Positions 3,381-52,880 are shown, counted from the first letter of the stretch. The stretch: DNA of 64,000 nt from Oscillospiraceae bacterium (GCA_047602575.1 JASGGY010000001.1:142413-206412), one strand, 5' to 3'. Numbers and translations: made by a program. The notes: generated from the sequence alone by a model not told the origin.

Positions 3381-3575
3381 GTTAGAAAAAAGCAATCAAA
3401 ATAGCGTAGACTGAAAAAAAGCATACGCTCAAATCTCGAGCGCTTTAGTGAAATCACAAAGTAACAAAAAATCAAAGTATAAAATCCAAAAGACAATGGG
3501 TTTCCAAAGGGTACTTGTACCCTTTGGTGAGGGGAGTCAAGGGGGCAAAGCCCCTTTGGGAGGGTTTATCTACAG
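3381..3575 (-). repeat. hairpin-stack repeat, long-tail copy (arm A1)
   Basis: On the plus strand: a tail with TCGAGCGC and TCACAAAGTA boxes, then GGGTTTCC (3498-3505), CCAAAGGGTACTTGTACCCTTTGG (3504-3527), a second hairpin GGGGCAAAGCCCC, and the end ..TTTATCTACAG. The reverse complement aligns along about 200 nt with 40437-40640 and 22227-22490. Confidence 0.8.
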
Positions 3576-3584
3576 TCTGATTGA

Positions 3585-4499
3585 TCAGAAATTGCGGTAA
3601 ACCCGCAGGAGCTGTTCGGTCAGATCCGCGCGTGCAAGCCCGAGAAACACGCCGTCTGCACCGTAAACGCGATAGAGCGCTTCCTGTTCCGGCATAATGG
3701 AAAGCACCTGCGAAAGGTTCAGCTTCACGCCGTTGAGATACAGTGCGGAAAGCCGCGCGTCAAGCGTGAGCGCTTCATAAGAAGCAAACACCGCGTCCGG
3801 CTTGATCAGTGCGTTTGCAATTGTGCCGGACTGCGCGAGGACTTCAATCTGCGCCAAGGTCAGGCAGTCGGCAAGGGCAATGCCGCCGGAGAGCGTCCGC
3901 TCGAGGCTTGTCATTACCGCGCCGACGCCGAGCGCCTGCCCCGCATCGTGGAGGAGCGTGCGCACATCAGTACGCTTTGAACAGAGGATGTCCGCCGTAC
4001 CGCACTGCGTTTGTTCGTCAAATGTGAGCAGCGTGAACGCTTTCACCGTGACGGTGCGTGCGGCGCGTTCGATTTCCACACCGTCGCGCGCGTATTCGTA
4101 AAGGCGCTTTCCGCCCACCGAAACCGCCGAGAACATGGGCGGAAGCTGCTCGATTTCGCCGGTGCGCGTGGCAAACGCGGCGGTAAGTTCTTGTGCCGTC
4201 ACCGCGGACGGCTGTTCGCGCAGCACGGTGCCGGTGCTGTCCTGCGTATCGGTTTCGATGCCCAGATGGAAGCCCGCCGTATAGCGCTTTTCGTTGGTGG
4301 GGAGAATGTCGCAGGCGCGTGTGCATTTTCCCGCAAAAACGGGAAGCACGCCGGTCGCCATTGGGTCGAGCGTTCCGCCGTGACCGAGGCGCTTCATTTT
4401 TAAAATCCCGCGCAGCTTCGCGATCACGTCAAAGGACGTAAACCCCGCAGGCTTATTGACGGGAAGAATGCCGTTAAAGCCGTAGTTATCCGTGTTCAA
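3585..4499 (-). CDS. truB: tRNA pseudouridine(55) synthase
   Basis: 304 aa ORF with GILPVNKPAGFTSFDVI..LGHGGTLDPMATGVLPV (TruB catalytic Asp motif). Canonical position between nrnA and ribF. Confidence 0.9.
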   Translation of the reverse strand: MNTDNYGFNGILPVNKPAGFTSFDVIAKLRGILKMKRLGHGGTLDPMATGVLPVFAGKCTRACDILPTNEKRYTAGFHLGIETDTQDSTGTVLREQPSAVTAQELTAAFATRTGEIEQLPPMFSAVSVGGKRLYEYARDGVEIERAARTVTVKAFTLLTFDEQTQCGTADILCSKRTDVRTLLHDAGQALGVGAVMTSLERTLSGGIALADCLTLAQIEVLAQSGTIANALIKPDAVFASYEALTLDARLSALYLNGVKLNLSQVLSIMPEQEALYRVYGADGVFLGLARADLTEQLLRVYRNF

Positions 4500-5447
4500 T
4501 AGCCGAACACCTCGCGCAGGGCGGCAACGAGCTTTTGCTTGACCTCGTCGAGTGTGCCGGTGATTTCGCAGCCCGCTGCGCGGATGTGTCCGCCGCCGCC
4601 GAAATTGCGGCAGAACGCGGACGCGTCGTGCTGTTCGGTGGTGCGCGCGGAAACCTTAAACACGCTTTCGTGGCGCTGGCGCACGGTCAGCCCGATTTCC
4701 ACGCCCTCAATCTGGAGCGGGATCGACGCAAGCCCGTCAAACTCCGCGGGCTCCATGCCGCTCTCGTCCATCATTTTCTTGGTAATCACAAGCATCGAGC
4801 AGCGGTCGTTGAAGAAAAATTCGATTGACTGCACAGCCTGCTGCTGCAAGCAGCACCCTGCCCTTGCTTTTTACATCGAACATCCGGCGGTTGATGCCGG
4901 CGAAATCGATGCCGCATTCCATCAGCGCGGCGCAGGCGATGTGTGCGGCGGGGGTGGTGTTTTCGTATTTAAAACAGCCCGTGTCCGTGGCGATGCCGGT
5001 GTAAAGGCAGGTCGCGACGCGCTTTGTGAGTTCCCTACCCATAAAACGGAACAGCTCAAACAGGATCAGCGCCGCCGCAGACGCGCGGGCATCGACATAG
5101 GTTTGCTTGGCAAAGCCGGTGTTGGAAATATGGTGGTCGATGCAAAGGTCGATCGCGCCCGGCTCGGCGTATTTCGTCATGCGGCTGCCCAGCAGCTGGA
5201 GATCCGCGATGTCCACCGCGATCACGAACCGCTCGTCGAATTCCTCGACGGTATAACCTTCATAAAGTGGGTCGTAGCGCGCCGGAAACGGGTCGTTGTT
5301 GACCACATTCGCGCGCTTGCCCATCCCGCGCAGCACCGCGCACAGGGCAAAGGCGCTGCCCAAGGTATCGCCGTCGGGACCTTTGTGGGTAAGAATGGTA
5401 AAGCAATCGTTCTGTTCGAGCAAAGCTTGAATTTCTGTAAAATCCAT
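4496..5447 (-). CDS. nrnA: DHH/DHHA1 phosphoesterase (NrnA-type), apparent 1-nt frameshift near 4850
   Basis: ORF 4737-5531 (start taken at MDFTEIQ, 5445-5447) has HKGPDGDTLGSAFAL, DHH (CIDHHISN) and TGIATDTGCF. ORF 4496-4849 has the DHHA1 end (GGGGHIRAAG). The frames join if one base is removed in GTGCTGCTTGCAGCAG. Confidence 0.75.
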
Positions 5448-5484
5448 TTCGGACAAATCCTTTCCGGTCGTGCGGTTGCGTTGT

Positions 5485-5862
5485 TTATTCCTGCGGTTCT
5501 TCCGGCGGGTTTTCCTTTTCGGAAATCTCACGCAGGAGTTTGTTGATCTGCTGCGAATGCGCCGCGGAGTCGTCGGCGATGAATTTCAGCTCCGGACTTT
5601 TTTTCAGATGCAGGACGTTGGAAATCTCCCGCTTGATATAGCCCGACGCGGATTCAAAGCCCTTGACAGCTTGCTTGGCGTGGTCAAAGCCCTTGAGGCT
5701 TGAGATATAAACCTTGCAGTACGAACCGTCCGCCGTCACATCGCACCGCATGACGGTGAGCATATCTCCGCCGTCGATGCGGGGGTCTTTCAGCTCTCGC
5801 ATCATGCCGGAGAGGATGCGGCGGATGTCCTCGGACATTCTTCCTGATTTAAAACCGGACAT
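5485..5862 (-). CDS. rbfA: ribosome-binding factor A
   Basis: 125 aa ORF; RbfA-like sequence (RMSEDIRRILSGMMRE..DPR...VTADGSYCKVYIS). Located directly downstream of infB. Confidence 0.9.
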   Translation of the reverse strand: MSGFKSGRMSEDIRRILSGMMRELKDPRIDGGDMLTVMRCDVTADGSYCKVYISSLKGFDHAKQAVKGFESASGYIKREISNVLHLKKSPELKFIADDSAAHSQQINKLLREISEKENPPEEPQE

Positions 5863-11405: not shown

Positions 11406-11433
11406 TGTGCGGTCCCTTTCTTTTTTAGATGTT

Positions 11434-11466
11434 GAAGTTAGAAGTCAGAGGTTAGAATTGGGGTTA
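11434..11466 (+). repeat. solo heptad array
   Basis: GAAGTTA GAAGTCA GAGGTTA GAATTGG GGTTAC, between two minus-strand genes. Confidence 0.7.
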
Positions 11467-14642: not shown

Positions 14643-15335
14643 ATGTCAAAATTCTGTACATCCTGCGGTGCATCCTTGTCCGATGAGGCGGGCTTCTGCA
14701 CCAATTGCGGCGCAAAGTCGCCGCAGACTGCGCCCGCTCAGCCGGCTTTCCAAACCGCGCCGGCAATGAATCAGAACACGCCGATATCCAACATCACCGC
14801 GGCGCTGGGAACGCCGGTTGATTTCATAAAAGCCAGGCTTAAAAATATGAACAAAAATGTCTGCGTCGGCATCTGTGCTGTGGTGGCAGGCGTGTTGGTG
14901 ATCATTCTGCTGCTGAGTATACTGGGTGGCGCCTATAAAAAACCGATCCGCAACATGGTCAAGGGTATGGATCAACAGGATTTTGACAAATACCTCTCCG
15001 CTTTCGCCGACGACGAGCAGGACTCGATAAAGGACAGTGTTGACGACGAAGATGACTACATGAAAGATCAGATGGATATCTATGAGGATATCGTCGGAAA
15101 CGACGTTGATATCTCCTATGACATTCTCGACAAAACGAAGCTTGACAAGGATCAGCTCGACGATTATGAGGACAGCTACAAATCGCGTTACGATGAAAAA
15201 ACAGACATCACCAAGGGCTACGATGTCTGCGTGAAAGTTACCATCAAAGGCGACGACGAGAAGCGGGTCAACTACCGCGACGTGACGGTGTTAAAAATTG
15301 ACGGCAAGTGGTGCGTTTACAGCGGCGGTCTTTAA
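14643..15335 (+). CDS. zinc-ribbon membrane protein with acidic extracytoplasmic domain
   Basis: 230 aa ORF MSKFCTSCGASLSDEAGFCTNCGAK (CxxC..CxxC), one TM helix and an Asp/Lys-rich C-terminal domain. SD AGGAGGG upstream. Confidence 0.6.
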   Translation: MSKFCTSCGASLSDEAGFCTNCGAKSPQTAPAQPAFQTAPAMNQNTPISNITAALGTPVDFIKARLKNMNKNVCVGICAVVAGVLVIILLLSILGGAYKKPIRNMVKGMDQQDFDKYLSAFADDEQDSIKDSVDDEDDYMKDQMDIYEDIVGNDVDISYDILDKTKLDKDQLDDYEDSYKSRYDEKTDITKGYDVCVKVTIKGDDEKRVNYRDVTVLKIDGKWCVYSGGL

Positions 15336-15391
15336 GGCAATCAAATCGCATTCGTTTTATAAAAGATATACATAAACTAGGAGGAAAAACT

Positions 15392-16108
15392 ATGTCAAAA
15401 TTCTGCACATCCTGCGGCGCAGCCCTATCCGATGATGCCGGCTTCTGCACAAGTTGCGGCGCAAAAACCGCACAAGCTGTCGCACCCCAGCCCGCTCCCG
15501 TGGTTACACCCACCCCTGTTCCCGCCGGCGCAACGGTTGCACAGGGCACACCGCTTGATTCGTTCAAGAAAAAAGTAAAGGAAATCTGGACAGGTCCTAA
15601 CCGCAATAAGATCATCGGCATCGCCGCCATCGCTGTGGTTGCGATCATTGTGCTGTGTATTCTGGCAAGTCTTTTGGGCGGCGGCTATAAAAAACCCATT
15701 GACAATCTGTTCAAGGGAATGGAAAAGGGCGACGAAGACAAATTCTTTTCCGCGTTCCCGAAAGAGGCAGAGGATCAATTTAAATCCTACAGCTCGATCC
15801 TCGGCTCATCGTCATCGTTCTTGGATTCCATCACCGACGAGCTGGAAGATAAATACGGTGACGACATTAAAATATCCTATAAGGTTAAAGATAAGGATAA
15901 AATGGACAAAGACGATCTTGACGATCTCGAAGATGATTATAAGGATAAATACGATGAGAAAGTTAAAATTACCAAAGGCTATGAGTTGACGTTGGATGTT
16001 ACCATTAAAGGTGACGACGATAAGGATACCGATGATATGGATATCACGGTTCTGAAAATTGACGGCGATTGGTATGTCGATTTCTCGTCATTCGATGTAA
16101 TGGACTAA
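15392..16108 (+). CDS. zinc-ribbon membrane protein, tandem paralog of 14643-15335
   Basis: Start at MSKFCTSCGAALSDDAGFCTSCGAK (SD AGGAGGA). Same architecture as the upstream gene; the first ~80 nt are similar at the DNA level. Confidence 0.6.
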   Translation: MSKFCTSCGAALSDDAGFCTSCGAKTAQAVAPQPAPVVTPTPVPAGATVAQGTPLDSFKKKVKEIWTGPNRNKIIGIAAIAVVAIIVLCILASLLGGGYKKPIDNLFKGMEKGDEDKFFSAFPKEAEDQFKSYSSILGSSSSFLDSITDELEDKYGDDIKISYKVKDKDKMDKDDLDDLEDDYKDKYDEKVKITKGYELTLDVTIKGDDDKDTDDMDITVLKIDGDWYVDFSSFDVMD

Positions 16109-16626: not shown

Positions 16627-17721
16627 ATGGAGCAGATTTCCCAAACGGTTCTGACGGCATACATCGACCGGCTCGAACGTGAGCGTACCCTCACCGCCGA
16701 TGAATTTTCGGCACTGGTGGAATTCCACACCCCCGCTTTGGCGGAATATGTCGCACAAAAAGCCCGCACCCTGCGCGCGCAATACTACGACAACGATGTT
16801 TATATGCGCGGGCTGATTGAGTTCACCAATTACTGTAAAAACGACTGCTTTTATTGCGGCATCCGCCGGAGCAACACCGCTGCCGAGCGGTACAGGCTGA
16901 CAAAGGACGACATCCTCGCCTGTGCGGCGGAAGGCTATCAGCTGGGCTTCCGGACGTTCGTTTTGCAGGGCGGTGAAGATCCCTTTTTCACCGATGAGCG
17001 GCTAACGGAAATTGTTTCGGCGCTCAAAGCGGCTTACCCCGACTGCGCGGTGACGCTTTCCGTGGGGGAACGCAGCTTTGAAAGCTATAAAAAGCTGTAT
17101 GACGCGGGGGCTGACCGGTATTTGCTGCGCCACGAAACCGCCGACGAGGCGCATTACGCAACGCTTCATCCCGCAGAACTGACGCTCGAAAACCGCAAGC
17201 GCTGTTTGTTTGATTTAAAGAAAATCGGCTTTGAAGTCGGAACGGGCTTTATGGTTGGCTCGCCGCACCAGACCCCGCAGACCATCGCCAAGGATCTGCT
17301 GTTTCTGCGGGAGCTTTTGCCCCAGATGGTGGGCATCGGGCCGTTCATCCCGCACGCGGACACGCCGCTGAAAAGCCATCCCGCCGGAAGTGCGCAGCTG
17401 ACGACATTTTTGCTCTCGCTCATCCGGATTATGCTGCCAAACGTCCTGCTCCCCGCCACCACTGCGCTCGGCACAATCGACCCCGCCGGGCGGGAAAAGG
17501 GCATTCTCTCCGGCGCAAATGTCGTGATGCCAAACCTCTCCCCCGTCGCGGTGCGGAAAAAATATATGCTCTACGACAATAAAATCTGCACCGGCGACGA
17601 GGCGGCGGAGTGCCGCTTCTGTATGCAGCGCAGGGTGGAGTCCATCGGCTATAAAATCGCCGTCTGTCGGGGGGATTGGAAGTCAGAAGTCAGAAGCCAG
17701 AAGTCAGAGGTCAGAAGATGA
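16627..17721 (+). CDS. hydE: [FeFe]-hydrogenase H-cluster maturase HydE (radical SAM)
   Basis: 364 aa ORF with the radical-SAM motif NYCKNDCFYCGIRR and BioB-like HydE sequence throughout. The last 13 codons (KSEVRSQKSEVRR) are encoded by a heptad repeat array. Confidence 0.85.
   Translation: MEQISQTVLTAYIDRLERERTLTADEFSALVEFHTPALAEYVAQKARTLRAQYYDNDVYMRGLIEFTNYCKNDCFYCGIRRSNTAAERYRLTKDDILACAAEGYQLGFRTFVLQGGEDPFFTDERLTEIVSALKAAYPDCAVTLSVGERSFESYKKLYDAGADRYLLRHETADEAHYATLHPAELTLENRKRCLFDLKKIGFEVGTGFMVGSPHQTPQTIAKDLLFLRELLPQMVGIGPFIPHADTPLKSHPAGSAQLTTFLLSLIRIMLPNVLLPATTALGTIDPAGREKGILSGANVVMPNLSPVAVRKKYMLYDNKICTGDEAAECRFCMQRRVESIGYKIAVCRGDWKSEVRSQKSEVRR
17679..17717 (+). repeat. heptad array (5.5 units) forming the 3' end of hydE
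   Basis: GAAGTCA GAAGTCA GAAGCCA GAAGTCA GAGGTCA GAAG, translated as KSEVRSQKSEVRR before the hydE TGA. Confidence 0.8.
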
Positions 17722-20767: not shown

Positions 20768-20998
20768 GCTGTTAGGGGTTAGGAAACAAGGATTGGGAGG
20801 AGAAGGTTGCTCAACTTCTCCCATTTCACAAACCAAACCATATAGCGTCACAAGGAGTCAACGCGCCCGCCATCCCGTTGAGAACATCTCACTACAACGC
20901 GCGCAACGGGTTTCCAAAGGGGGCATGCCCCCTTTGGTGGGAGAGTCAAGAGGGGGCAAAGCCCCCTTTTGTGGGGTCAGGGGTGAAGCCCCTGCATA
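20764..20998 (-). repeat. composite repeat unit: heptads + variable hairpin + conserved boxes + hairpin stack (arm A2)
   Basis: TTAGGCT GTTAGGG GTTAGGA (20764-20784), hairpin GGAGAAG..CTTCTCC, TTCACAAACCAAA, CAACGCGCGCAA, GGGTTTCC (20908), CCAAAGGGGGCATGCCCCCTTTGG (20914-20937), then two more GC hairpins to 20995. Homologous to 32161-32375. Confidence 0.8.
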
Positions 20999-21023: not shown

Positions 21024-22229
21024 ATGGGGATGAATGAAACGCCGGCGGGGGAGCGCGTGCACATCGGGCTGTTCGGGCGGCGCAATGCGGGGAAGTCAAG
21101 CTTAATTAACGCGCTGACCGGGCAGGCGCTTTCCATCGTGTCCGATGTGGCGGGAACGACGACAGACCCCGTGTATAAAGCCATGGAGCTGCTGCCGCTC
21201 GGACCTGTGATGCTCATCGACACGGCGGGGCTGGACGAGCTGGGCGAGCTGGGCGGGCTTCGCGTGAAAAAAACGCTGCAGGTGCTCAATAAAACCGACG
21301 TGGCGGTGGTGGTCTGTGACGCGCGGGAGGGAATTACCGCGGACGACCAAATGATCATTGACCGATGCAGGGCAAAAAAAATTCCGCTTGTGATTGTGAT
21401 GAACAAGATTGATCTGGCGAGCGGAATTCCCGCGCGGCAGGATGCGGACGCGGTGTTTGTCAGCGCCGCGACGGGCGAGAACATCGCCGCGCTGAAGGAG
21501 AAAATCGCACAGTCTGTCAAAGCCTCCGACGAAAAGTTGCGGCTGGTGGCGGATCTGGTTGCGCCGTCGGACTTTGTGGTGCTGGTTGTGCCGATTGACA
21601 AGGCGGCGCCCAAGGGCAGGTTGATTCTGCCCCAGCAGCAAACCATTCGCGACCTGCTGGAAGCCGACGCGGTGTCGGTTGTGGTGAAAGAATACGAGCT
21701 GCGCGACACGCTGATGACGCTCGGGAAAAAGCCGAGGCTCGTCATCACCGACAGCCAGGTGTTCGCGAAGGTGTCCGCGGACACGCCGCAGGACATCCCG
21801 CTGACGTCGTTTTCGATCCTTTTTGCGCGGTATAAGGGCATGCTGGAGGAGGCGGTGCGCGGGGCGCAGGCGCTTGATACGCTCACCGACGGCGACCGAG
21901 TGCTGATTGCGGAGGGCTGTACGCACCACCGCCAGTGCGACGACATCGGCACGGTGAAGCTCCCCCGCTGGATCGGGCAGCACACGGGCAAAAAGCTTGA
22001 TTTTACGTTCACAAGCGGCGGGGAATTCCCCGACGATCTGTCGTCTTACAAGCTCGTTGTTCACTGCGGCGGCTGTATGCTGGGCGACCGCGAGGTGAAA
22101 TTCCGCACAAAATGCGCCGCCGAGCAGAACATCCCCATCACCAATTACGGCATCGCCATCGCCCATATGCAGGGCATTCTAAAACGCAGCGTCGCCGTTT
22201 TCCCCCACATCGCAGCAATGTTGCCTTAG
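21024..22229 (+). CDS. hydF: [FeFe]-hydrogenase maturation GTPase HydF
   Basis: 401 aa ORF with GRRNAGKSSLINALTG (G1), DTAGLDE (G3), NKID (G4) and the C-terminal cluster-binding CTHHRQC...HCGGC. Confidence 0.85.
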   Translation: MGMNETPAGERVHIGLFGRRNAGKSSLINALTGQALSIVSDVAGTTTDPVYKAMELLPLGPVMLIDTAGLDELGELGGLRVKKTLQVLNKTDVAVVVCDAREGITADDQMIIDRCRAKKIPLVIVMNKIDLASGIPARQDADAVFVSAATGENIAALKEKIAQSVKASDEKLRLVADLVAPSDFVVLVVPIDKAAPKGRLILPQQQTIRDLLEADAVSVVVKEYELRDTLMTLGKKPRLVITDSQVFAKVSADTPQDIPLTSFSILFARYKGMLEEAVRGAQALDTLTDGDRVLIAEGCTHHRQCDDIGTVKLPRWIGQHTGKKLDFTFTSGGEFPDDLSSYKLVVHCGGCMLGDREVKFRTKCAAEQNIPITNYGIAIAHMQGILKRSVAVFPHIAAMLP

Positions 22230-22541
22230 ATAAAACCTATGTCAGGGGGCGCCGCCCCCCGACACCCCCTGCCAAAGGGGGCGTTGCCCCCTCTGGACTC
22301 CCTCACCAAAGGGGGCATGCCCCCTTTGGAAACCCGTCGTTTCAGGGATTATACTTTGTTTTGCTTAACAGATTTGTATTATCGCTGCTACTTTGTGAAT
22401 CTATCGGGGCGCTCGAAAAGGAAGCAAATACTTTGCTCTCAAGAAGAACTGGTTATCGCAGCAATTTTTCAATTTTTCAACAATCTGCCCTCCCAATTTC
22501 TAACGTCCAACCTCTAACATCTAACTTCAAAACGTGACTTC
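22227..22541 (+). repeat. hairpin-stack repeat, long-tail copy ending in inverted heptads (arm A3)
   Basis: TTAGATAAAACC (contains the hydF stop), GTCAGGGGGCGCCGCCCCCCGAC (22241-22263), CCAAAGGGGGCGTTGCCCCCTCTGG, CCAAAGGGGGCATGCCCCCTTTGGAAACCC (22306-22335), a tail with TACTTTGTGAA / GGCGCTCGA boxes, then reverse-complement heptads at 22491-22541. Confidence 0.8.
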
Positions 22542-23019: not shown

Positions 23020-25479
23020 ATGGCAAAGAAGGTTCTCATCGTCGGCGGCGTGGCGGGCGGCGCGACGGCTGCGGCAAGGCTGCGCAGGCTGGATGAAAGC
23101 GCGCAGATCATGATGTTTGAAAAAGGCGGGTACATCTCGTTTGCGAACTGCGGGCTGCCCTATTACATCGGCGGGGCGATCCGCGAGAAGTCCGCACTTA
23201 CACTTCAGACACCGCAGAGCTTCAAGGCGCGGTTCAACGTGGATGTGCGGGTCAACAGCGAGGTTGTTTCCATCGACAAGGAAAGAAAAACCGTTTCGGT
23301 GCGCAATCACGCGACGGGTGAAACCTATGAGGAGCGCTATGACGCACTGGTGCTGTCGCCGGGCGCAGAACCGATCCGCCCGAATCTCGAGGGGATGGAT
23401 TCTGACAAGATTTTCACCCTGCGCAACATCCCCGACACCGTGAAAATCAAGGAATACATCCAGACGCACCGCCCGAAAACCGCGGCGGTCGTTGGCGGCG
23501 GCTTCATCGGCGTGGAAATGGCGGAGAACCTGCACGCAGCGGGACTTTCGGTGTCGCTCATCGAGCTGGCGGATCAGGTCATCGCACCGATTGACTATGA
23601 CATGGCGGGGGATGTCCATCGCCACATCGAGAGCAAGGGCGTTGCGCTTTATCTCGGCAATGCCGTGCGGAGCATTTCCGACAACGGAAAGCAGCTCGAA
23701 ATCGCCCTGGGCAGCGGCATGATTACCGCCGACCTGCTCATCATGGCAATCGGCGTAAAGCCCGACACGAAGCTTGCGAAGGAAGCCGGTCTGGCACTCA
23801 ACGCACGCGGTGCAATCCTCGTGGACGACCATATGCGCACCGGCGCGCCGGATGTCTACGCCGTCGGCGATGCGGTGGAAATCACCGATTTCGTCACCGG
23901 CGAAAAGGGCTTTGTTCCCCTTGCAGGGCCTGCCAACAAGCAGGGCAGGATTGCCGCGGACAATATCTGCGGGTTGGACAGCATTTACACCGGAACGCAG
24001 GGCTCGTCGATTTTAAAGGTGTTTGACTTAACCGTCGCCGCCACCGGCATCAACGAAAAAACCGCCAAGCGGCTTGGGCTGGATTATGAGAAATCCTTCA
24101 CCTATTCCGCCAGCCACGCCAGCTATTATCCCGGTGCGGTGAATATGTCGATCAAGACGATTTTTGAGAAAGCCACAGGCAAGATCCTCGGCGCGCAGGT
24201 GGTGGGCTATGACGGCGCGGATAAGCGCTGCGATGTGCTTGCGACGGCGATCCGCGCCGGCATGACCGCACTGGATCTCGCCCGGCTCGAGCTTTGCTAC
24301 GCGCCGCCCTACGGCTCGGCAAAAGACCCGGTCAACATGGCGGGCTATGTGATAGAAAACATCCTCGCCGGCAGGGAAAAGATTTTCCACTGGCACGATG
24401 TGGAGAAGCTTCCCCGCGACGGCAGCGTAACGCTGCTCGACACCCGCACACCCATAGAATATGCCAACGGACACATCGGCGGCTTTATCAACATCCCGCT
24501 CGACGAGCTGCGCGGGCGGCTGGGCGAGCTTGACAAGAAAAAGCCCGTGTATGTTACCTGCCAGATCGGGCTGCGGGGTTATGTGGCTGCGCGGATTTTG
24601 ATGCAGAACGGCTTTGACGCGTTCAATTTAAGCGGGGGCTACCGGCTTTACAACTCCATTTTCGGTGCGCATCCGCCCAAGCCCGCCGCCGGCATCAACC
24701 CCGAAACCCAGCTTCCCGAGCCGCCGGCGGAGAAGCTCGCAGAAGCTCCCGCAAAGATCGTTTCCGTTGACGCGTGCGGCTTGCAGTGCCCCGGACCGAT
24801 TGTGAAGCTTTCCGCGGCGCTCGAAACAGCGGCGGAGGGCGATGTGGTGGAAATTTCCACGACTGACCCCGCGTTTGCCGGCGACATTGAGGGCTTTTGC
24901 CGGCGCACGGGAAACGAGTTCCTCGGTATCACGAGCGCAAAGGGCGTATCGGCGGCGCGGATCAGAAAAAAGCATGTTGTTTCGGGCGGAACGGCTCAAG
25001 CTGAATCCAAGGACAAAAAGAACATCATTGTGTTTTCCGGTGATCTGGATAAAGCGATTGCGTCGTTCATCATCGCCAACGCCGCCGCCGCGATGGGGCG
25101 CAAGGTGAGTATGTTCTTCACCTTCTGGGGGCTGAACATCCTGCGCCGCGCGGAAAAGGTAAGGGTGCGGAAGAATTTTATCTCGAAAATGTTCGGGATG
25201 ATGATGCCGCGCGGCGCTGGGCGGCTCAAGCTTTCTAAAATGAATATGGGCGGCATGGGAGCGAAGATGATACGCGGCGTGATGAAATCCAAAAATGTCA
25301 GCAGTCTTGAGGAGCTCATTGCCCTTGCGCAGCAAAACGGCGTAGAGCTGATTGCCTGCTCGATGTCGATGGACGTCATGGGCATCACGCAGGAGGAGCT
25401 TCTCCCCGGCGTCAAGCTTGCAGGCGCCGCCGCCATGCTCGCCAACGCCGAAGAATCCGACATGTCATTGTTTATTTAG
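23020..25479 (+). CDS. CoA-disulfide/persulfide reductase-like flavoprotein fused to rhodanese, TusA-like and DsrE-like domains
   Basis: 819 aa ORF with GGVAGGATAAARLRR (FAD), SFANCGLPYY (redox Cys), VTCQIGLRG (rhodanese Cys loop), DACGLQCPGP (TusA CPxP) and a C-terminal DsrE/DrsE-like region (IIVFSGDLDKAIASFIIANAAAAMG..ACSMSMDVMG). Confidence 0.8.
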   Translation: MAKKVLIVGGVAGGATAAARLRRLDESAQIMMFEKGGYISFANCGLPYYIGGAIREKSALTLQTPQSFKARFNVDVRVNSEVVSIDKERKTVSVRNHATGETYEERYDALVLSPGAEPIRPNLEGMDSDKIFTLRNIPDTVKIKEYIQTHRPKTAAVVGGGFIGVEMAENLHAAGLSVSLIELADQVIAPIDYDMAGDVHRHIESKGVALYLGNAVRSISDNGKQLEIALGSGMITADLLIMAIGVKPDTKLAKEAGLALNARGAILVDDHMRTGAPDVYAVGDAVEITDFVTGEKGFVPLAGPANKQGRIAADNICGLDSIYTGTQGSSILKVFDLTVAATGINEKTAKRLGLDYEKSFTYSASHASYYPGAVNMSIKTIFEKATGKILGAQVVGYDGADKRCDVLATAIRAGMTALDLARLELCYAPPYGSAKDPVNMAGYVIENILAGREKIFHWHDVEKLPRDGSVTLLDTRTPIEYANGHIGGFINIPLDELRGRLGELDKKKPVYVTCQIGLRGYVAARILMQNGFDAFNLSGGYRLYNSIFGAHPPKPAAGINPETQLPEPPAEKLAEAPAKIVSVDACGLQCPGPIVKLSAALETAAEGDVVEISTTDPAFAGDIEGFCRRTGNEFLGITSAKGVSAARIRKKHVVSGGTAQAESKDKKNIIVFSGDLDKAIASFIIANAAAAMGRKVSMFFTFWGLNILRRAEKVRVRKNFISKMFGMMMPRGAGRLKLSKMNMGGMGAKMIRGVMKSKNVSSLEELIALAQQNGVELIACSMSMDVMGITQEELLPGVKLAGAAAMLANAEESDMSLFI

Positions 25480-25620
25480 AGGTCAGAAGTCAGAGGCCAG
25501 AGGTCAGAAACGAAAGAGGACTTATGCGCACGCGCATAAGTCCTCTTTATCACAATTTTTAGTATCTCAAGACTGTTCCCTTGTAACTTCTGACTTCTGA
25601 CCTCTGACTTCTGACCTCTA
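25477..25620. repeat. palindromic heptad element filling the whole convergent intergenic region
   Basis: GAGGTCAGAAGTCAGAGGCCAGAGGTCAGAA (25479-25509) and its near-perfect reverse complement (25588-25618, 2 mismatches) flank a near-perfect 36-nt palindrome AAAGAGGACTTATGCGCACGCGCATAAGTCCTCTTT (25513-25548). TAG stops of both flanking genes abut the arms. Confidence 0.8.
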
Positions 25621-30857: not shown

Positions 30858-32168
30858 TTGATTGCTCAGCTCAACGCGCGCTTATCGGAAGCCGTCTGGG
30901 GCGCGCCCGTCATTATACTTATGCTCGTGACCGGCGTTTTGTTCACCGTCGGCACAGGTTTTTTTCAGGTGCGCTGCGCGGGCAGAATCCTGCGCGAAAC
31001 GCTCGGCACGCTGTTTCATAAAACCCCCGGCGCGGACGCATCAAGCCTTTCGCAGCTCCAGACGGTGTCCGCGTCGTTGGGCGCAACCATCGGCACGGGT
31101 AGTGTGGTCGGCGTGGCGGCGGCGATTTCCGTCGGTGGGGCGGGTGCGGTGTTCTGGATGTGGGTGTCGGCATTTTTCGGGATGATGACGGCTTATGCGG
31201 AAAATGTCCTCGCGATTTTGTTCCGCGAAAAGAAAAACGGCGTCACTGTCTGCACCGCCGCGGATTATATGGAAAAAGGACTCGGCGCGCGGTGGATGGG
31301 AGTGATATTCTCGGTTTTCTGCGTGTTGGCTTCCTTCGGCATGGGCAACATGGCGCAGGGGAACGCCATCGCCGGTGCTTGCGCGGAAAGCTTCGGCGTT
31401 CCGGCGGCGGTGTGCGGGGCTGCGCTTACAGCACTGGTCTGTGCGGTGATGCTTGGCGGCAGAAAGCGCCTCGGGCGCGTGGCGGAGCGGCTTGTGCCGT
31501 TTATGGCGGTCTTTTTCATCGGCGGGGCGCTGGTGATTATCCTGCTCAATTGCAGCGAGCTCGGCGGTGCGTTCGGCGAAATTTTTGCCGGCGCGTTCGG
31601 CGTAAAGTCCGCGGCGGGTGGCGCGGTGGGGGTAACACTCCAGATGGCGGTTTCCACCGGCTTCCGGCGCGGAAGCTTTTCTCACGAAGCCGGACTCGGC
31701 TCAACCGTCGCACTCCATGCCGCCACAGAGGTCAGAGATCCTGTCAAGCAGGGAATGTGGGGCATTTTTGAGGTGTTCGTTGACACCATGGTCATCTGCA
31801 CGCTCACCGCGCTCGTCATCCTCGTCACCGGTCAGACCGGCGGCGGAAGTGACTGCATCGTGCGCGCGTTCTCGACGGGTTTCGGAACGCTGGGCGGCAC
31901 ATTCGTGTCCGTGTCCATCGCGCTGTTCGCCCTTGCGACCATCCTAAGCTGGTCATATATCGGCATCCAGTCATGGAACTGGCTGTTCCCGCGCTCAAAG
32001 GGCAGGCTCTATAAAAGCATCTTCTGTGTCGCGGCTTTTTTCGGCTGCACAATGAACCTGAAGCTCGTGTGGGACATCTCCGACACCTTTAACGGACTCA
32101 TGGCAATTCCAAACCTAACCGCATTACTGCTACTAAGCAGAAAAGTTTTTAAGGCGTCTAGAAGTTAG
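30858..32168 (+). CDS. sodium:alanine (AGCS family) symporter
   Basis: 436 aa ORF with TTG start. AGCS signature region LQTVSASLGATIGTGSVVGVAAAISVGGAGAVFWMWVSAFFGMMTAYAE. The stop codon lies inside a heptad repeat. Confidence 0.8.
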   Translation: MIAQLNARLSEAVWGAPVIILMLVTGVLFTVGTGFFQVRCAGRILRETLGTLFHKTPGADASSLSQLQTVSASLGATIGTGSVVGVAAAISVGGAGAVFWMWVSAFFGMMTAYAENVLAILFREKKNGVTVCTAADYMEKGLGARWMGVIFSVFCVLASFGMGNMAQGNAIAGACAESFGVPAAVCGAALTALVCAVMLGGRKRLGRVAERLVPFMAVFFIGGALVIILLNCSELGGAFGEIFAGAFGVKSAAGGAVGVTLQMAVSTGFRRGSFSHEAGLGSTVALHAATEVRDPVKQGMWGIFEVFVDTMVICTLTALVILVTGQTGGGSDCIVRAFSTGFGTLGGTFVSVSIALFALATILSWSYIGIQSWNWLFPRSKGRLYKSIFCVAAFFGCTMNLKLVWDISDTFNGLMAIPNLTALLLLSRKVFKASRS

Positions 32169-32375
32169 AAGTCAGAAGTCAGAGGTCAGAAGTCAGAAGC
32201 TAGGAGGGTAATCTGTACAGATTACCTCACATCGCAAACCAAATCCCATTGAGCATCACAAAGAGCAGGCGCGCCCGCACACTGATCGAAAAGCAGGCAC
32301 CCCAACGCGCGCAAAGGGTTTCCAAAGGGGGCATGCCCCCTTTAGCGGGGGTCTGGGGGCGAGGAGCCCCCAGTG
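32161..32375 (-). repeat. composite repeat unit: six heptads + variable hairpin + boxes + hairpin stack (arm A4)
   Basis: GAAGTTA GAAGTCA GAAGTCA GAGGTCA GAAGTCA GAAGCTA (32161-32202), palindrome GGTAATCTGTACAGATTACC (32207-32226), TCGCAAACCAAA, CAACGCGCGCAA, GGGTTTCC (32316), CCAAAGGGGGCATGCCCCCTTTAG, and CTGGGGGCGAGGAGCCCCCAG. Confidence 0.8.
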
Positions 32376-32381
32376 AAGTCC

Positions 32382-33233
32382 TCACAAAGTCACCTCGGCG
32401 TGTCTTGTGACGTGGCAGCCGATGTTGACGGCGACGGGGAGGCCGGCGATGTGGGTGGGGGCTTGTTCGATGTTGACGGCGAGGGCGGTGATTGAGCCGC
32501 CGAAGCCCTGCGGACCGATGCCGAGGCGGTTGATCTCGCGGAGGATGACGACTTCCATGCCGGCGTAGAGGGGATTGGGGTTGCGCACCGACACGGGGCG
32601 GCAGAGGGCTTTTTTCGCGAGATAGGCACAGCTTTCAAAATTTCCGCCGATGCCGACACCCACGACCATGGGCGGGCAAGGGTTCGACCCTGCTCTTGCG
32701 CAAACCTCGACGACGAAGTCCACGATATCCGCTTTGGACACCGAGGGAGTCATCATTTTCAGCGCGGACATATTCTCGCTGCCGAAGCCCTTTGGTGCGA
32801 CGACGATTTTCACTGATTCGCCGGGAACGAATCGGGTATGTACAACGGGCGGGGTGTTGTCGTCGGTGTTGACGCGCTCAAGCGGATCGGCGACAATCGA
32901 ACAACGCAGCTTGCCCTCCACATAGCCGCGCGCCACGCCGCGATTGATCGCTTCGTTGATGCCGCCGCCGGTGAAATGCACATCCTGCCCGACCTCGAGA
33001 AAAATCACCGCCATGCCGGTGTCCTGGCAAATCGGAATCTGCTCCTCGCGCGCGGCGATGAGGTTGTTCTTCATGTCGTCAAACACAGCCCGCCCGACGG
33101 GGGATTTCTCCTCCTTTGCGGCGCAGTTGATGCACGCCTCCAGATCGGCGGGGAGATATAAATTTGCTTTGATACAAAGCGCCCGCACCGCGTTTTCGAC
33201 TTCTAAAACGTTCAGCTCACGCACAGGGGACAT
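32382..33233 (-). CDS. class I Fe-S fumarate/tartrate hydro-lyase, alpha subunit
   Basis: 283 aa ORF with ..IPICQDTGMAVIFLEVGQDVHF.. and C-terminal ..VAVNIGCHVTRH, typical of the alpha (N-terminal) chain. No beta chain is adjacent. Confidence 0.8.
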   Translation of the reverse strand: MSPVRELNVLEVENAVRALCIKANLYLPADLEACINCAAKEEKSPVGRAVFDDMKNNLIAAREEQIPICQDTGMAVIFLEVGQDVHFTGGGINEAINRGVARGYVEGKLRCSIVADPLERVNTDDNTPPVVHTRFVPGESVKIVVAPKGFGSENMSALKMMTPSVSKADIVDFVVEVCARAGSNPCPPMVVGVGIGGNFESCAYLAKKALCRPVSVRNPNPLYAGMEVVILREINRLGIGPQGFGGSITALAVNIEQAPTHIAGLPVAVNIGCHVTRHAEVTL

Positions 33234-35186: not shown

Positions 35187-35299
35187 GCCTTATCAAGAGT
35201 GGCTGAGGAAACAGGTCCTTTGAAGCCCGGCAACCTGATTAACCCGCGTAGGGTTAAAAAAGGTGCTAAATCCTGCGGAGTATTCCGGAAGATGAGGAT
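35187..35299 (+). promoter_or_regulatory. SAM-I (S-box) riboswitch aptamer
   Basis: CCTTATCAAGAGTGGCTGAGGAAACAGGTCCTTTGAAGCCCGGCAACC...AAGGTGCTAAATCCTGC...GAAGATGAGGA matches the S-box core (TTATCAAGAG, GAGGGA-like, GCAACC, AGGTGCTAA, AGATGAG). It sits upstream of metK. Confidence 0.85.
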
Positions 35300-35459: not shown

Positions 35460-36635
35460 ATGGCAAACTATTTATTTACGTCAGAATCCGTGACGGAGGG
35501 GCATCCGGACAAGCTTTGTGATCAGGTTTCCGACGCGGTGCTTGACGCAATGCTCGCACAAGACCCCCTCTCGCGCGTGGCGTGCGAAACGGTTGCGACG
35601 ACAGGTGTCGTGATGCTGATGGGCGAGGTTTCGACCAATGCGAATGTGGACATCCCCGCCATTGTGCGGGAGGTTGTGACGGGCATCGGCTACAATTGCT
35701 CGGACTGCGGCTTTGACGGGAACACCTGCGCGGTGATGACGACGCTCGACAAGCAATCCCCCGACATCGCGATGGGCGTGGACAACGCGCTCGAAGGTCG
35801 CGCGGAAAACGCGTTCGACACGGGCGCGGGCGATCAGGGCATGATGTTCGGCTATGCCTGCGACGAAACGCCGGAGCTGATGCCGATGCCGGTTTCGCTC
35901 TCCCACCGCCTGGCAAAACGCCTGACGGAGGTGCGGAAGAGTGGGCTTCTGCCCTATCTGCGTCCGGACGGGAAAACGCAGGTGACGGTGGAATACGACA
36001 GCGGGCGCGTTGTGCGCGTGGACACGGTGGTGGTTTCCTCCCAGCATGACGACGCGGTGACGCTTGCACAAATCCGCGCCGATCTGATTGAACACGTCGT
36101 AAAGGCCGTGATTCCGTCAGAACTGCTTGACGAGAAAACCAAATATTTCATCAATCCCACCGGACGCTTTGTCATCGGCGGCCCGCACGGCGACAGCGGC
36201 TTGACGGGCAGAAAAATCATCGTTGACACCTACGGCGGCTATTCCCGTCACGGCGGCGGCGCGTTCTCAGGTAAAGACCCCACCAAGGTTGACCGTTCGG
36301 GTGCGTACGCGGCGCGCTATGTGGCGAAAAACATTGTCGCGGCGGGATTGGCAAAGCGCTGCGAGGTTGAGCTTGCATACGCAATCGGCGTTGCCCACCC
36401 CGTGTCCGTCATGGTGGACACATTCGGCACGGGTACGGTTTCCGATGCGGTGCTTTCCGCGGCGGTGCAGAAGGAATTCGACCTGCGCCCGGCTGCAATC
36501 ATCAAAGCCCTTGACTTAAGAAAGCCCCAGTACCGCGCCCTCGCGGCATACGGCCACATGGGGCGGGAGGAGCTTGGCGTTGCGTGGGAGAAAACCGACC
36601 GCATTCAAGCGTTAATAAACGCAGTGCAGGATTAA
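35460..36635 (+). CDS. metK: S-adenosylmethionine synthetase
   Basis: Start at [29 protein letters not shown] (SD GGAAAGGAG). Contains [12 protein letters not shown] and [16 protein letters not shown]. Confidence 0.9.
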
Positions 36636-36790
36636 TGTCAGGGGGCGCCGCCCCCCGACACCTCCTGCCAAAGGGGGCATGCCCCCTTTGGAAACCCGTT
36701 GTTTTTGGAATTATAGTTTGTTTGCGTCTGTGAATTTGTGGGGATGTTCAGGTTTGGATGTTTACGGTGTTTCCGTTTATACTTTGATAT
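36635..36790 (+). repeat. hairpin-stack repeat (arm A5) in the metK 3' UTR
   Basis: GTCAGGGGGCGCCGCCCCCCGAC (36637-36659), CCAAAGGGGGCATGCCCCCTTTGGAAACCC (36668-36697), and an AT-rich tail. It lies between the metK stop and its terminator. Confidence 0.75.
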
Positions 36791-36792
36791 GT

Positions 36793-36841
36793 AAAGGCTG
36801 CACAGCGCGGGGAATGCGCAGTGCAGCCTTTTTTTATTTTT
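36793..36841 (+). terminator. intrinsic terminator of metK (lies downstream of the inserted repeat)
   Basis: AAAGGCTGCAC...GTGCAGCCTT stem followed by TTTTTATTTT. Confidence 0.7.
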
Positions 36842-40377: not shown

Positions 40378-40399
40378 TTTCCTACCCCTCAGAAAAATC

Positions 40400-40435
40400 A
40401 AACCGGCAGCATCGCTTTGATGCTGCCGGTTTTTG
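40400..40435 (+). terminator. intrinsic terminator of ilvC
   Basis: CCGGCAGCATC-GCTTT-GATGCTGCCGG followed by TTTTT. Confidence 0.8.
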
Positions 40436-40436
40436 A

Positions 40437-40814
40437 CTGTAGATAAAACCTCCCAAAGGGGGCGTTGCCCCCTCTGGACTCCCTCACCAAAGGGTACAAG
40501 TACCCTTTGGAAACCCGTCGTTTCAGGGATTAACTTTGTTTTGTTTAGCGGATTTGTGTTTTCGCTACTACTTCGTGATTTCACAGGGCGCTCGAAAAAA
40601 GAGTATAGACTTTTTATTCAGTCTGGACTAAATCCTTTCTCCCTAAAAAATCAAACCGGCGGCATTTGCGCTATATTCCCCATATAAGAATTAAAGTACA
40701 AGTAATTGACAAACTGAAAAAGACTACAAAACATAAAAAACAAAAACAAAGGGTTTCCAAAGGGGGCATGCCTCCTTTGGTGAGGGAGTCCAGAGGGGGC
40801 AACGCCCCCTTTGG
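40437..40814. mobile_element. MITE-like element with ~64-bp terminal inverted repeats built from two stacked hairpins (arms A6 and A7)
   Basis: Left end at 40453-40516 reads CCAAAGGGGGCGTTGCCCCCTCTGGACTCCCTCACCAAAGGGTACAAGTACCCTTTGGAAACCC. Right end at 40751-40814 is its reverse complement with few changes. The ~234-bp AT-rich interior has no ORF. Confidence 0.6.
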
Positions 40815-40830
40815 TCATAGCCGGTATTTG

Positions 40831-45296: not shown

Positions 45297-45430
45297 TAGT
45301 CAGGGGGCGCTGCCCCCCGACACCTCCTGCCAAAGGGTACAAGTACCCTTTGGAAACCCATTGTTTTATAGTTTATACTTTGATTTTCTTTGCTATTTTG
45401 TGCGAGAGCTGTTGTTTTGTGCTTCTATAT
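45297..45430 (+). repeat. hairpin-stack repeat (arm A8) between the ABC exporter stop and the terminator
   Basis: GTCAGGGGGCGCTGCCCCCCGAC (45299-45321), CCAAAGGGTACAAGTACCCTTTGGAAACCC (45330-45359), and a tail with a TTTTGTGCGA box. Confidence 0.75.
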
Positions 45431-45440: not shown

Positions 45441-45485
45441 AAAACGCTTGTGTGTGGTTTTTTACCAAACGCAAGCGTTTTTTGT
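45441..45485. terminator. bidirectional hairpin terminator between the ABC exporter and ribU
   Basis: AACGCTTG...CAAGCGTT stem flanked by an A-run upstream and TTTTTG downstream. Confidence 0.55.
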
Positions 45486-45492: not shown

Positions 45493-46125
45493 TTAGCACT
45501 TTCCGCGCAGAACCGGCGCAAGCTTTTTGTAAACCAGCAGTGTGATGAACACGCTGGCAAGACCTTTGATGAAGGTGAAGGGCAGGTTAAAAATCAGCAG
45601 GCACTTGAGCAGGGTGGAAGCCGCGGGGAGGATTGCTTTGTACATTCCCACCACCACGGGGATGGGGAAGCCCACAAAGCGCTCGTACATGGGGTAGATC
45701 AGGAAGAGGTTGATCGGCACGCTCGCCGCCGCCATCAACATCGCCCCGCCCAACGCGCTGAGAATCGCCGCGGTGCGCGTTTTCACGCGCTTGTAAATCA
45801 GCCCCGCGGGCAGAATGAACGCCGTTCCCATCAGGAAGTTTGACAGCTCGCCGATGCCCATACTTTGGCTGAACGGCAGGTGAACGAGGTTTTTCACCGC
45901 GCACACCACAATGCCGGAGAGCGGACCGAACGTAAACGCTGCGATCAGCGCAGGCAAATCGGAAAAATCAAACTTGATGAATGCCGGCATCAGCCCGGGC
46001 AGGGGGATTTCCAGAAACATCAGAATCGCCGCCGCCGCGCCCAGCATGGCGGTGGAGGTCATTTTGCGGATATTGCGGGCTTTTTGGTTGACTTTCGGAT
46101 CGGTACTGCAGTTCATAGGGATCAT
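45493..46125 (-). CDS. ribU: ECF transporter S component, riboflavin-type (RibU-like)
   Basis: 210 aa multi-TM ORF (..FLEIPLPGLMPAFIKFDFSDLPALIAAFTFGP..) directly downstream of an FMN riboswitch. The start may be ATG 46114-46116, which has better SD spacing. Confidence 0.75.
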   Translation of the reverse strand: MIPMNCSTDPKVNQKARNIRKMTSTAMLGAAAAILMFLEIPLPGLMPAFIKFDFSDLPALIAAFTFGPLSGIVVCAVKNLVHLPFSQSMGIGELSNFLMGTAFILPAGLIYKRVKTRTAAILSALGGAMLMAAASVPINLFLIYPMYERFVGFPIPVVVGMYKAILPAASTLLKCLLIFNLPFTFIKGLASVFITLLVYKKLAPVLRGKC

Positions 46126-46211: not shown

Positions 46212-46231
46212 CACAGCTTTGCCGTACTGTT

Positions 46232-46349
46232 GTTTCTCTCATCCGGACTATAACCGTTGGTACCGGAATCTAACCGGTTCGGCGGGATTCCTCAGAAATC
46301 CCGTTCGCGGACTTTACCGCCAGTGTGGAGTTGCACCACGCCCCGAAAC
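46232..46349 (-). promoter_or_regulatory. FMN riboswitch (RFN element)
   Basis: Minus strand reads TTCGGGGCGTGGTGCAACTCCACACTGGCGGTAAAGTCCGCGAAC...GAACCGGTTAGATTCCGGTACCAACGGTTATAGTCCGGATGAGAGAAAC. This matches RFN conserved blocks (GGGGC.GGGT, CGGCGGTA..GCCCGCGA-like, GGT.A.ATTCC, GACAGTATAGTCTGGATG-like, AGAAG-like). Confidence 0.85.
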
Positions 46350-46377
46350 AAATATGAAATTGTGTGTAAGATTAGCG

Positions 46378-50567: not shown

Positions 50568-50596
50568 TTGACAACTTGACACGGATGCGGTATACT
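50568..50596 (+). promoter_or_regulatory. putative sigma-A promoter of the PEP carboxykinase gene
   Basis: TTGACA (50568-50573), a 17-nt spacer, then TATACT (50591-50596). Confidence 0.55.
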
Positions 50597-50676
50597 AGTA
50601 TTTGTGGGAATTTGGATTTGTAAGCCGGATTTTAACAGACGGCTTTCAAGGATAGATTGGAAAGGAAGGTATCACA

Positions 50677-52470: not shown

Positions 52471-52482
52471 TCAAACCAAACC

Positions 52483-52524
52483 AAAGCGCACACAGCTCCA
52501 ATGCTGTGTGCGCTTTTTGCTTTC
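52483..52524 (+). terminator. intrinsic terminator of pck
   Basis: AAAGCGCACACAGC-TCCAAT-GCTGTGTGCGCTTT followed by TTGCTTTC. Confidence 0.75.
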
Positions 52525-52534
52525 GCTAAACGTT

Positions 52535-52880
52535 ATGTCAGGGGGCGCCGCCCCCCGACACCCCCTGCCAAAGGGTACAAGTACCCTTTGGAAACCCATA
52601 GTTTTTGTTATTATTCGTTTGTAATCTTTTCTGGTTTGCTAATTACTGTTACTTTGTGTTTTTATTTAGCAACAAAGCACAAATGCCGCCAGCTGATGGT
52701 TCAGACGGGCGGCATAAAGCGCATATTTAATGTATGTTTTTATAATGAAGAGGAGAAATCCAAAGTAAAAGTCTGCGCAAATTAAAATCGTTTTACAAAG
52801 TTATAATTACACAAACAAAGGGTTTCCAAAGGGGGCAGGCCCCCTTTGGTGGGAGGTGTCGGAGGGTGAAACCCTCTGAC
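52535..52880. mobile_element. MITE-like element with ~61-bp terminal inverted repeats built from two stacked hairpins (arms A9 and A10)
   Basis: Left end at 52537-52597 reads GTCAGGGGGCGCCGCCCCCCGACACCCCCTGCCAAAGGGTACAAGTACCCTTTGGAAACCC. The right end at 52820-52880, reverse-complemented, reads GTCAGAGGGTTTCACCCTCCGACACCTCCCACCAAAGGGGGCCTGCCCCCTTTGGAAACCC. The ~222-bp AT-rich interior is partly homologous to that of 40437-40814. Confidence 0.6.

Follow-up and report, generated by a model that had tools for sequence, protein, structure and literature searches.

A dispersed family of strand-specific intergenic hairpin elements in an Oscillospiraceae genome, interpreted as probable small mobile DNA elements

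We analysed a stretch of 64,000 nucleotides from the genome of an Oscillospiraceae bacterium (GCA_047602575.1, JASGGY010000001.1:142413-206412; hereafter, the window), in which an earlier note, made from the sequence alone, had described ten intergenic arms built of stacked GC-rich hairpins. These arms probably make up the structured part of mobile DNA elements that are small, non-coding and non-autonomous, and that resemble miniature inverted-repeat transposable elements (MITEs) and stack their palindromes in the manner of repetitive extragenic palindromic (REP) sequences and bacterial interspersed mosaic elements (BIMEs); we give this reading a probability of roughly 0.6. The family was previously uncatalogued in Rfam. 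Its kind, the MITE/REP class of intergenic repeats, is an ordinary one; what sets it apart is the conservation of the core, together with a strand-specific fold and a polarity toward the ends of genes. Among the three options offered in the earlier note (a REP/BIME-like element, a MITE-like element or a structured RNA), a MITE- or REP-like DNA element is the best supported, by the ends, the target duplications, an empty site and the patchy distribution of the copies; however, terminal inverted repeats were found in only one branch of the family.

Ten copies of one element in the window

The core hairpin CCAAAGGG-N8-CCCTTTGG, with up to two mismatches allowed, matches the window at ten positions (Table 1), against 0.05 matches expected from shuffled sequences. 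A covariance model (R1), which we built from 74 distinct copies and ran on the window with filters off, recovered exactly these ten copies (60-73.5 bits, E-values 1e-12 to 1e-15), and its best further non-overlapping match reached only 9.9 bits. The ten arms are thus real, and they occur at a frequency of about one per 6 kb. The orientation of a copy is set by the AAACCC flank of the core, by which five copies lie on the plus strand and five on the minus strand, and the spacer N8, when read in element orientation, is GGCATGCC in five copies, TACAAGTA in four and GGCAGGCC/GGCCTGCC in one, so that both the 5/4/1 count and the two orientations given earlier were recovered. The outer hairpin (M1) and the optional hairpin (M2) that had been described besides the core (M3) were also found as described on reading the sequence. 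All ten copies are intergenic relative to the flanking genes confirmed by a Pfam scan of the adjoining open reading frames (ORFs), in agreement with the claim that the family is strictly so.

The earlier note had seen only the hairpin block, which is the structured part of longer elements of about 190-235 nt in the window: with the copies co-oriented, similarity runs about 100-124 nt past AAACCC into a conserved AT-rich tail, which comes in two subtypes among the window copies. A complete element consists of an optional terminal sequence starting with CAAT, one to three GC-rich hairpin units with a C-rich linker after each, the core hairpin, AAACCC, and the AT-rich tail of about 124 nt. Copies 40487 and 40757 make up a tail-to-tail pair of elements, as do copies 52568 and 52826. 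The sequence CTGTAGATAAA is present in two window copies, a third carries TTAGATAAA, and it is not a general tag. In their dispersal, copy number and small size the elements agree with MITEs, which are shorter than about 300-500 bp, and reading the tail region 40510-40757 by eye revealed neither a start codon nor an ORF.

Covariation and strand specificity of the hairpins

Covariation was measured on an alignment (A1) of 74 distinct copies. Paired cells make up 95.8% in this alignment against 80.1% in shuffled versions, none of 500 shuffles reaching the observed value; compensatory (double-change) cells number 255 against 86, and sliding of the 3' partners cuts pairing to 31-63%. Nine of the ten base pairs of the second helix covary, and so do the top 2 bp of the core stem. 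In that stem the lower 8 bp are invariant, but this invariance was imposed by the search pattern used to gather the copies; likewise, the core stem and AAACCC do not vary between phyla, but the copies compared had been collected by a search in which this sequence was a requirement. Therefore, the proposal that the stems are kept by compensatory change is borne out. Selection on structure instead of sequence, also proposed, applies to the outer hairpins only; in the core, the M3 stem keeps the sequence of its lower 8 bp as well as its structure.

The mismatches within the stems are strongly asymmetric. Counted on the gene-side strand, A·C mismatches are found in 22 distinct hairpins, which come from many genomes, and G·T in only one. 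On the complementary strand, which reads 5'-GGGTTT-core-G-rich linker-hairpin, the A·C positions become G·U or G·T wobbles. Since A·C mismatches far outnumber G·T mismatches on the gene-side strand, selection for folding acts on a single strand, GGGTTT-CCAAAGGG, which usually lies opposite to the adjacent gene; this selection was missed by the earlier note. The bias fits RNA and single-stranded DNA alike and cannot tell them apart. Nine of the ten window copies have their GGGTTT strand antisense to the gene at whose stop codon the hairpins lie; the exception is copy 20914, the only one in which this strand is the mRNA strand (hydF leader).

A further structure was observed in 15 Ruminococcus loci (L018, L019, L024, L025, L037, L047, L052, L053, L064, L067, L069, L070, L077, L080 and L087), where AAACCC is followed by an AT-rich hairpin of 15-19 bp. 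Its stem sequence is copy-specific with full compensation, its ends and loop (about ATAAA) are conserved, and it is followed by a second small hairpin and copy-specific outer inverted repeats. At a site shared by L018 and L077, whose flanks are 93% identical, both loci carry the element, and the long AT hairpin has a wholly different, internally compensated sequence in each.

Ends, direct repeats and an empty site

The clearest insertion signatures come from a Ruminococcus subfamily of 187 nt, which has 18-bp terminal inverted repeats (CAATGYYRWCAACTTAAG, 17-19 of 20 positions matching). Target duplications of 9-10 bp were found in L052, L095, L079 and L025; in this subfamily they are ACAAGGACTG in L052 (10 of 10 positions), CTGTTTTAG in L095 (9 of 10) and a 7-of-10 match in L079. 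The terminal consensus of IS4-family insertion sequences (ISs) is CAT-------AA--TAA--- with repeats of 10-12 bp in the IS231 subgroup, and -AATR--------WTW---- with repeats of 10-13 bp in the IS4 subgroup (PMC2266710). Both the ends (CAATGCTAACAACTTAAG) and the 10-bp duplications of the Ruminococcus subfamily match this family consensus (PMC2266710).

Three window copies, 22306, 36668 and 40487, are flanked by exact direct repeats, of 11, 10 and 15 nt, respectively (P <= 0.01 each). The repeat of copy 3, ATCGCAGCAAT, lies at 22209-22219 and 22455-22465 (P=0.000 in 200 shuffles) and doubles the hydF codons for the residues HIAA, which are found in several orthologues; the last residues and the stop codon of hydF come from the element. 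For copy 5 the repeat CGCAGTGCAG lies at 36620-36629, within the last codons of metK, and at 36817-36826, within the 3' arm of its terminator (P=0.01). The 15 exact nucleotides at copy 6 are part of an imperfect 33-nt repeat at 40380-40412 and 40633-40665, and a weak repeat, AAAGCGCA(C/T)A, flanks copy 9 at 52483 and 52716. The distance from the core to the right-hand repeat is always +125 to +135, which defines the right boundary of the element. Together with the repeat length of 10-11 nt, the CAAT start of copies 3504 and 22306 is the only agreement of the window copies with IS4-family ends.

An empty site, of the kind that the earlier note had asked for, was also found: a response-regulator leader carries the element in L025, and the orthologous leader in L080 is without it. 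As expected of MITEs, presence and absence at orthologous sites was seen here, at the hydF loci, and in L020, which has one unit where L031 has two.

Copies would accordingly be gained by insertion with a target duplication of about 10-11 bp, a pattern that fits an IS4-family DDE transposase supplied in trans. They persist at sites where they do little harm, namely, immediately behind stop codons and in the gaps that separate convergent or co-directional genes. The fold may serve the recognition of a single-stranded intermediate, or it may have a role as RNA, for example, in halting transcription that enters the neighbouring gene from downstream.

Distribution in other genomes

We scanned species-representative genomes with the core plus AAACCC and found at least 97 loci in about 42 assemblies among the matches listed; R1 detected 146 copies in the 722 kb of these loci. 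Among the matches listed, most are from Oscillospiraceae, Ruminococcus and metagenome-assembled genomes (MAGs) of other Clostridia, and the other carriers include Alistipes, Desulfovibrionaceae, Pyrinomonadaceae, Dehalococcoidia, a Treponemataceae MAG, and the alphaproteobacteria Gemmobacter, Pararhodobacter, Falsiroseomonas and Methylobacterium. Copies from outside the Clostridia also have the upstream GC hairpin and the C-rich linker, and thus are not chance terminators. Copies inside one MAG are nearly identical, and many MAG contigs terminate in an element. When ORFs were called crudely in all loci, a co-directional stop codon adjoined the hairpin side in 57 cases and a gene start in 29.

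Within this range the distribution is patchy, since no copy was found in about 540 kb around 80 metagenome loci orthologous to hydF (61-69% amino acid identity), whereas the window hydF has one copy on each side. The next relatives of the window MetK are about 80% identical in amino acid sequence, and the best relatives of its HydF are 69% identical. The core pattern was found in only two of 2.9 million viral contigs, so the family is essentially absent from them, and a BLAST search of one copy against plasmid and phage records gave no relevant match.

Several arrangements beyond the single element were seen in these loci. A composite repeat of about 480 nt (L030, 7030-7510; also in L068, L007, L076 and L091) is bounded by two inverted core units with their hairpin sides inward, contains about a dozen different perfect hairpins, and has a predicted folding energy of about -257 kcal/mol. 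A repeated unit of about 100 nt (..AAATCACGAGCGATGTGTTCT..GGAAGTAGCTTCGTGGTCGG.TGCAGCGTCACGCTGCCCTTTGGAAACCC), which ends in a variant half-core and may occur in tandem, is found at L018 4330-4560 and in L052 and L054. Direct tandem units 100-250 nt apart occur in Desulfolutivibrio, an Eubacteriales MAG and Clostridiaceae (L039 1462-1777; L088 260-499; L031 5149-5318).

Comparison with known systems

The family resembles the MITEs of the IS4 family (IS231 and IS4 subgroups; compare the MIC231 cassettes) in being small, non-coding, multi-copy and variably inserted or absent between genomes. It also resembles them in the 18-bp ends and 9-10-bp duplications of the Ruminococcus branch and in the window repeats of at least 10-11 nt with two CAAT left ends. 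It differs from them in that the window copies lack convincing terminal inverted repeats, and in its covarying, strand-specific interior and cross-phylum core combined with differing ends, which are unexpected for a simple deletion derivative. Also in contrast to these MITEs, no parent IS with CAATG...CAACTTAAG ends was found in the loci examined.

With the REP sequences and BIMEs of Proteobacteria the family shares short, imperfect, GC-rich palindromes that are clustered with stereotyped linkers, extragenic and high in copy number, and that lie mostly downstream of genes, in convergent or co-directional gaps, sometimes touching or supplying the stop codon. The published placement and stop-codon contact of REPs are similar (PMC3733652). 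However, the units of a cluster share one orientation here rather than alternating, the family has the AT-rich tail of about 124 nt, some copies have target duplications of about 10 bp, and no gene for a REP-associated tyrosine transposase (RAYT), which REPs typically flank, was seen near the copies. In REPs, every palindromic unit has a conserved tetranucleotide, GTAG or CGTC, at one of its ends (PMC3733652). We looked for such a tag and rejected it: GTAG occurs in two of the ten window copies, about 10 nt from the hairpin, and neither tetranucleotide tags the family across 108 distinct copies. The link to RAYT transposases through GTAG, which the earlier note had offered as speculation, therefore fails, no transposase having been seen nearby either.

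The earlier note had not recognised a named repeat family; in agreement with this, no Rfam family reached its gathering threshold over the element in the window or in 18 other loci, and a literature search did not find the core sequence in published papers. The only hint, a weak one, was the Rfam small RNA (sRNA) family RF02937 (Clostridiales-2), which scored 20.2, 13.4 and 17.4 bits against a gathering score of 58.6, and the copies are therefore not members of it. The likeness lies on the GGGTTT strand, where both have a G-rich leader (GGGnnU), then a GC hairpin, then a second hairpin, and the linker and second hairpin of some copies (GGGGGUGCAGGGGGAC...GUCCCCCUGC) resemble the model consensus. 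Rfam matches of the microRNA type are merely long fold-backs.

Two further candidates were rejected. An intrinsic terminator, in which a U-tract directly follows a GC-rich hairpin, does not fit a core followed by only three T, and a terminator scan gave terminator-like sites at only two copies, on the GGGTTT strand. Integron attC sites, which occur in cassette arrays and have R''/R' core sites on either side of one long imperfect hairpin, do not fit either: we saw no RYYYAAC ... GTTRRRY core sites on inspection, and the neighbours are housekeeping genes in both orientations. Another modular intergenic repeat is the pneumococcal BOX element (boxA-boxB(n)-boxC), which has optional or variable internal modules and a strong predicted secondary structure. 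By general description alone, the modular design is similar to that of the present family and the host range is different; we know of no established mobilising enzyme for BOX, and of no equivalent of a core conserved across phyla.

Weighing the alternatives

Several observations weigh against an origin of the family as IS4-like MITEs. The best terminal inverted repeat in the window matches at 10 of 20 positions (copy 3504), and no significant outer closing stem or terminal inverted repeat was found in the solo copies there. Flanking direct repeats occur in only three or four of the ten window copies, the others having none, and two of the repeats involve terminator arms and are not explained by simple target duplication. 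No transposase with matching ends turned up in any locus examined, and among clustered proteins encoded within 3 kb of about 100 copies no transposase recurs, only spurious repeat-spanning ORFs and common families. Most subfamilies, for example, those of the CANCXY MAG and of Rhodobacterales, lack terminal inverted repeats and target duplications, and thus the hairpin module may spread by a route other than that of the IS4-like branch. DDE cut-and-paste transposition requires neither hairpins nor a given strand, yet the hairpins covary and their mismatches are strand-biased. In addition, the core is common across phyla while the outer ends differ, and a covarying interior is unexpected for neutral MITE cargo.

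Some of these points would be accommodated if the family were a functional RNA of the GGGTTT strand whose mobility is secondary, made from a promoter in the tail or by read-through from downstream and acting as an antisense sRNA or a transcription backstop. We regard this as unlikely. It is in keeping with mismatches that are G·U-compatible on that strand only (22 distinct hairpins against one), with strong covariation that extends to the long variable Ruminococcus hairpins, with loops that include CUUG and UGCG, which we take to correspond to stable RNA tetraloop types, and with the weak Clostridiales-2 match. By inspection of the sequence, most of the ten window copies also have a TATAAT-like box 12-14 nt upstream of GGGTTT, and AGGTTTTATC, which on this strand resembles a terminator, comes after the last hairpin at 22265-22239 and 40478-40452. 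However, G·T is also the best-tolerated mismatch in single-stranded DNA, and therefore the strand bias is no proof of RNA. About half of the copies have co-directional genes on either side, a setting in which antisense transcription would not be expected to arrive, and about one third lie just upstream of a same-strand gene start, for example, that of hydF, and therefore cannot be strong terminators. Most copies lack a U-tract past the last hairpin, the promoter-like box is limited to the tail of this lineage and missing in others, and no copy is conserved at orthologous genes.

Mobilisation as single-stranded DNA would also account for a strand-specific fold. REP/BIME-type units could be moved by an HUH (Y1) transposase, either a RAYT or one like those of IS200/IS605, that recognises the core hairpin with its GGGTTT flank. 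Strand-specific hairpins with a sequence-conserved stem and a conserved single-stranded flank would suit such an enzyme, as would units stacked with stereotyped linkers in numbers that differ between copies, and terminal inverted repeats and target duplications are missing in most subfamilies. The high copy number and the extragenic location beside stop codons are as described for REPs (PMC3733652). Nevertheless, we consider it improbable, as there is no GTAG or CGTC tag, no Y1 transposase was seen within 3 kb of any of about 100 copies, and no replication-strand bias is seen, the copies being split five to five where the GC skew is uniformly positive across the window. Moreover, HUH transposition makes no target duplications, and those of about 10 bp are present in one branch and at several window copies. 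A far simpler account, in which the hairpins are ordinary structures of the upstream mRNA end, either intrinsic terminators or stabilising hairpins of the 3' untranslated region that evolved in place, is already strongly disfavoured and in our view very improbable. Nine of the ten window copies follow a stop codon in gene orientation, the core is laid out as A3-GC stem-T3 like a bidirectional terminator, and the metK and ABC-exporter copies lie between stop codon and terminator and therefore are probably transcribed. Against this, one 30-nt core with its linkers recurs at ten unrelated loci in the window and in about 42 assemblies, the U-tracts are only 3 nt, separate canonical terminators exist, the mismatches disfavour folding of the mRNA strand, and the elements are missing at orthologous gene ends.

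While non-autonomous mobile elements remain the preferred reading of the family as a whole, the conserved interior suggests a more tentative idea, which we hold to be possible rather than likely. The GGGTTT leader, the 8-bp CCAAAGGG stem with its covarying top, the G-rich linker and the second hairpin may form a recognition module, single-stranded as RNA or DNA, that occurs in at least six phyla, has been captured by different ends and is read by a conserved candidate factor. One possibility for this factor is a mobilising enzyme of a new type, serving REP-like repeats that do not belong to the GTAG/CGTC superfamilies; another is a host system for which the hairpin arrays are polar barriers that shield the 3' ends of genes from incoming antisense transcription. 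If the strand-specific core that is shared across phyla does have a dedicated partner, it would point to an undescribed system of mobilisation or transcription insulation in gut and rumen Clostridia.

In practical terms, the elements break MAG assemblies, generate spurious ORFs and may pass for terminators or sRNAs in annotation, and R1 provides a means to mask or track them. They also remodel gene ends: in the window, the stop codon of hydF is supplied by one copy and its leader is occupied by another, and the truB-ribF spacer is filled by a third, which carries an outward promoter-like site.

Gene context of the window copies and other observations

The positions and neighbours of the ten copies are given in Table 1. 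The order of elements and terminators is as the earlier note had it: the terminators of metK (about 36793-36835) and of the ABC exporter (about 45442-45480) lie after the element, and those of ilvC and pck precede their elements. All four genes are served by separate canonical terminators.

Table 1. Copies of the hairpin element in the window, with core match position, R1 score and gene context
Copy	Coordinates	Strand	Core	R1 (bits)	Features	Context
1	3393..3583	-	3504	67.1	full element 191 nt; hairpin block 3498-3575; imperfect ends CAATCAGACTG... and ...CAGTCTACGCTATTTTGATTG (CAGTCT...TGATTG)	truB stop (3585-3587) at 1 nt; ribF start about 17 nt from other end
2	20810..20995 (left limit approximate)	-	20914	65.7	GCGCGCG-type tail	between hydG (radical SAM/BATS) and hydF; last hairpin stops about 25 nt before hydF start
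3	22220..22454	+	22306	64.9	three hairpins (A, M2, core) and tail	between hydF and trx; provides hydF stop codon
4	32215..32386 (left limit approximate)	-	32322	64.4		hairpin side abuts fumarate hydratase stop (32382); convergent with Na:Ala symporter, shared intergenic region
5	36630..36816	+	36668	73.1		begins at metK stop, upstream of metK terminator; metK/ilvB-like interval
6	40433..40632	+	40487	66.2	ends GACTGTAGATAAAAC... and ...TTTTTATTCAGTC	past ilvC terminator; ilvC/peptidase M15 interval
7	40633..40825	-	40757	60.1	tail to tail with copy 6	hairpin side adjoins stop codon (40831) of Peptidase_M15_4 gene
8	45297..45430 (right limit approximate)	+	45330	73.5		begins at ABC exporter stop (45299), upstream of bidirectional terminator; ABC exporter/ECF-S interval
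9	52533..52715	+	52568	72.9		past pck terminator
10	52716..52884	-	52826	64.9	tail to tail with copy 9	hairpin side adjoins trmB-like methyltransferase stop (52892); pck/trmB-like interval

An outward promoter-like site was noted in several window copies. The 3' end of the core together with AAACCC gives a -35-like TTGGAA; the tail has a TATACT, TATAGT or TATAAC box at a distance of 18-20 nt from it, and the site faces away from the adjacent gene. The site lies at 22326-22355, at 36688-36717 and at equivalent positions in copies 3504, 45330 and 52826, that of copy 3504 being directed at ribF. Both TTGGAA-18-TATACT on the gene-side strand and the TATAAT box on the other strand are limited to the tail of this lineage, and no sigma-70 promoter is common to the family.

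Among the neighbouring features, two riboswitches score well over their Rfam gathering thresholds, namely, an S-adenosylmethionine (SAM) riboswitch upstream of metK (35187-35298, plus strand) and a flavin mononucleotide (FMN) riboswitch (46227-46354, minus strand) upstream of the S component of an ECF transporter (45493-46125). The adjacent ORFs 14643-15335 and 15308-16108 look like tandem paralogues, with stretches that are 77-78% identical (14642-14747/15391-15496 and 14916-14971/15668-15723).

The window also contains a second repeat, consisting of intergenic tandem heptamers (AGAAGTC/AGAGGTC/GTTAGAG)n with four to six units per array, at 17679-17717, 25478-25508, 25586-25619 (reverse), 32160-32199, 11429-11456, about 20770-20810 and 22499-22525. 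Most arrays overlap or directly follow a stop codon, and they have the orientation of the upstream gene. At about 25.5 kb, two arrays inverted relative to each other lie between convergent genes, and three arrays adjoin the tail ends of hairpin elements.

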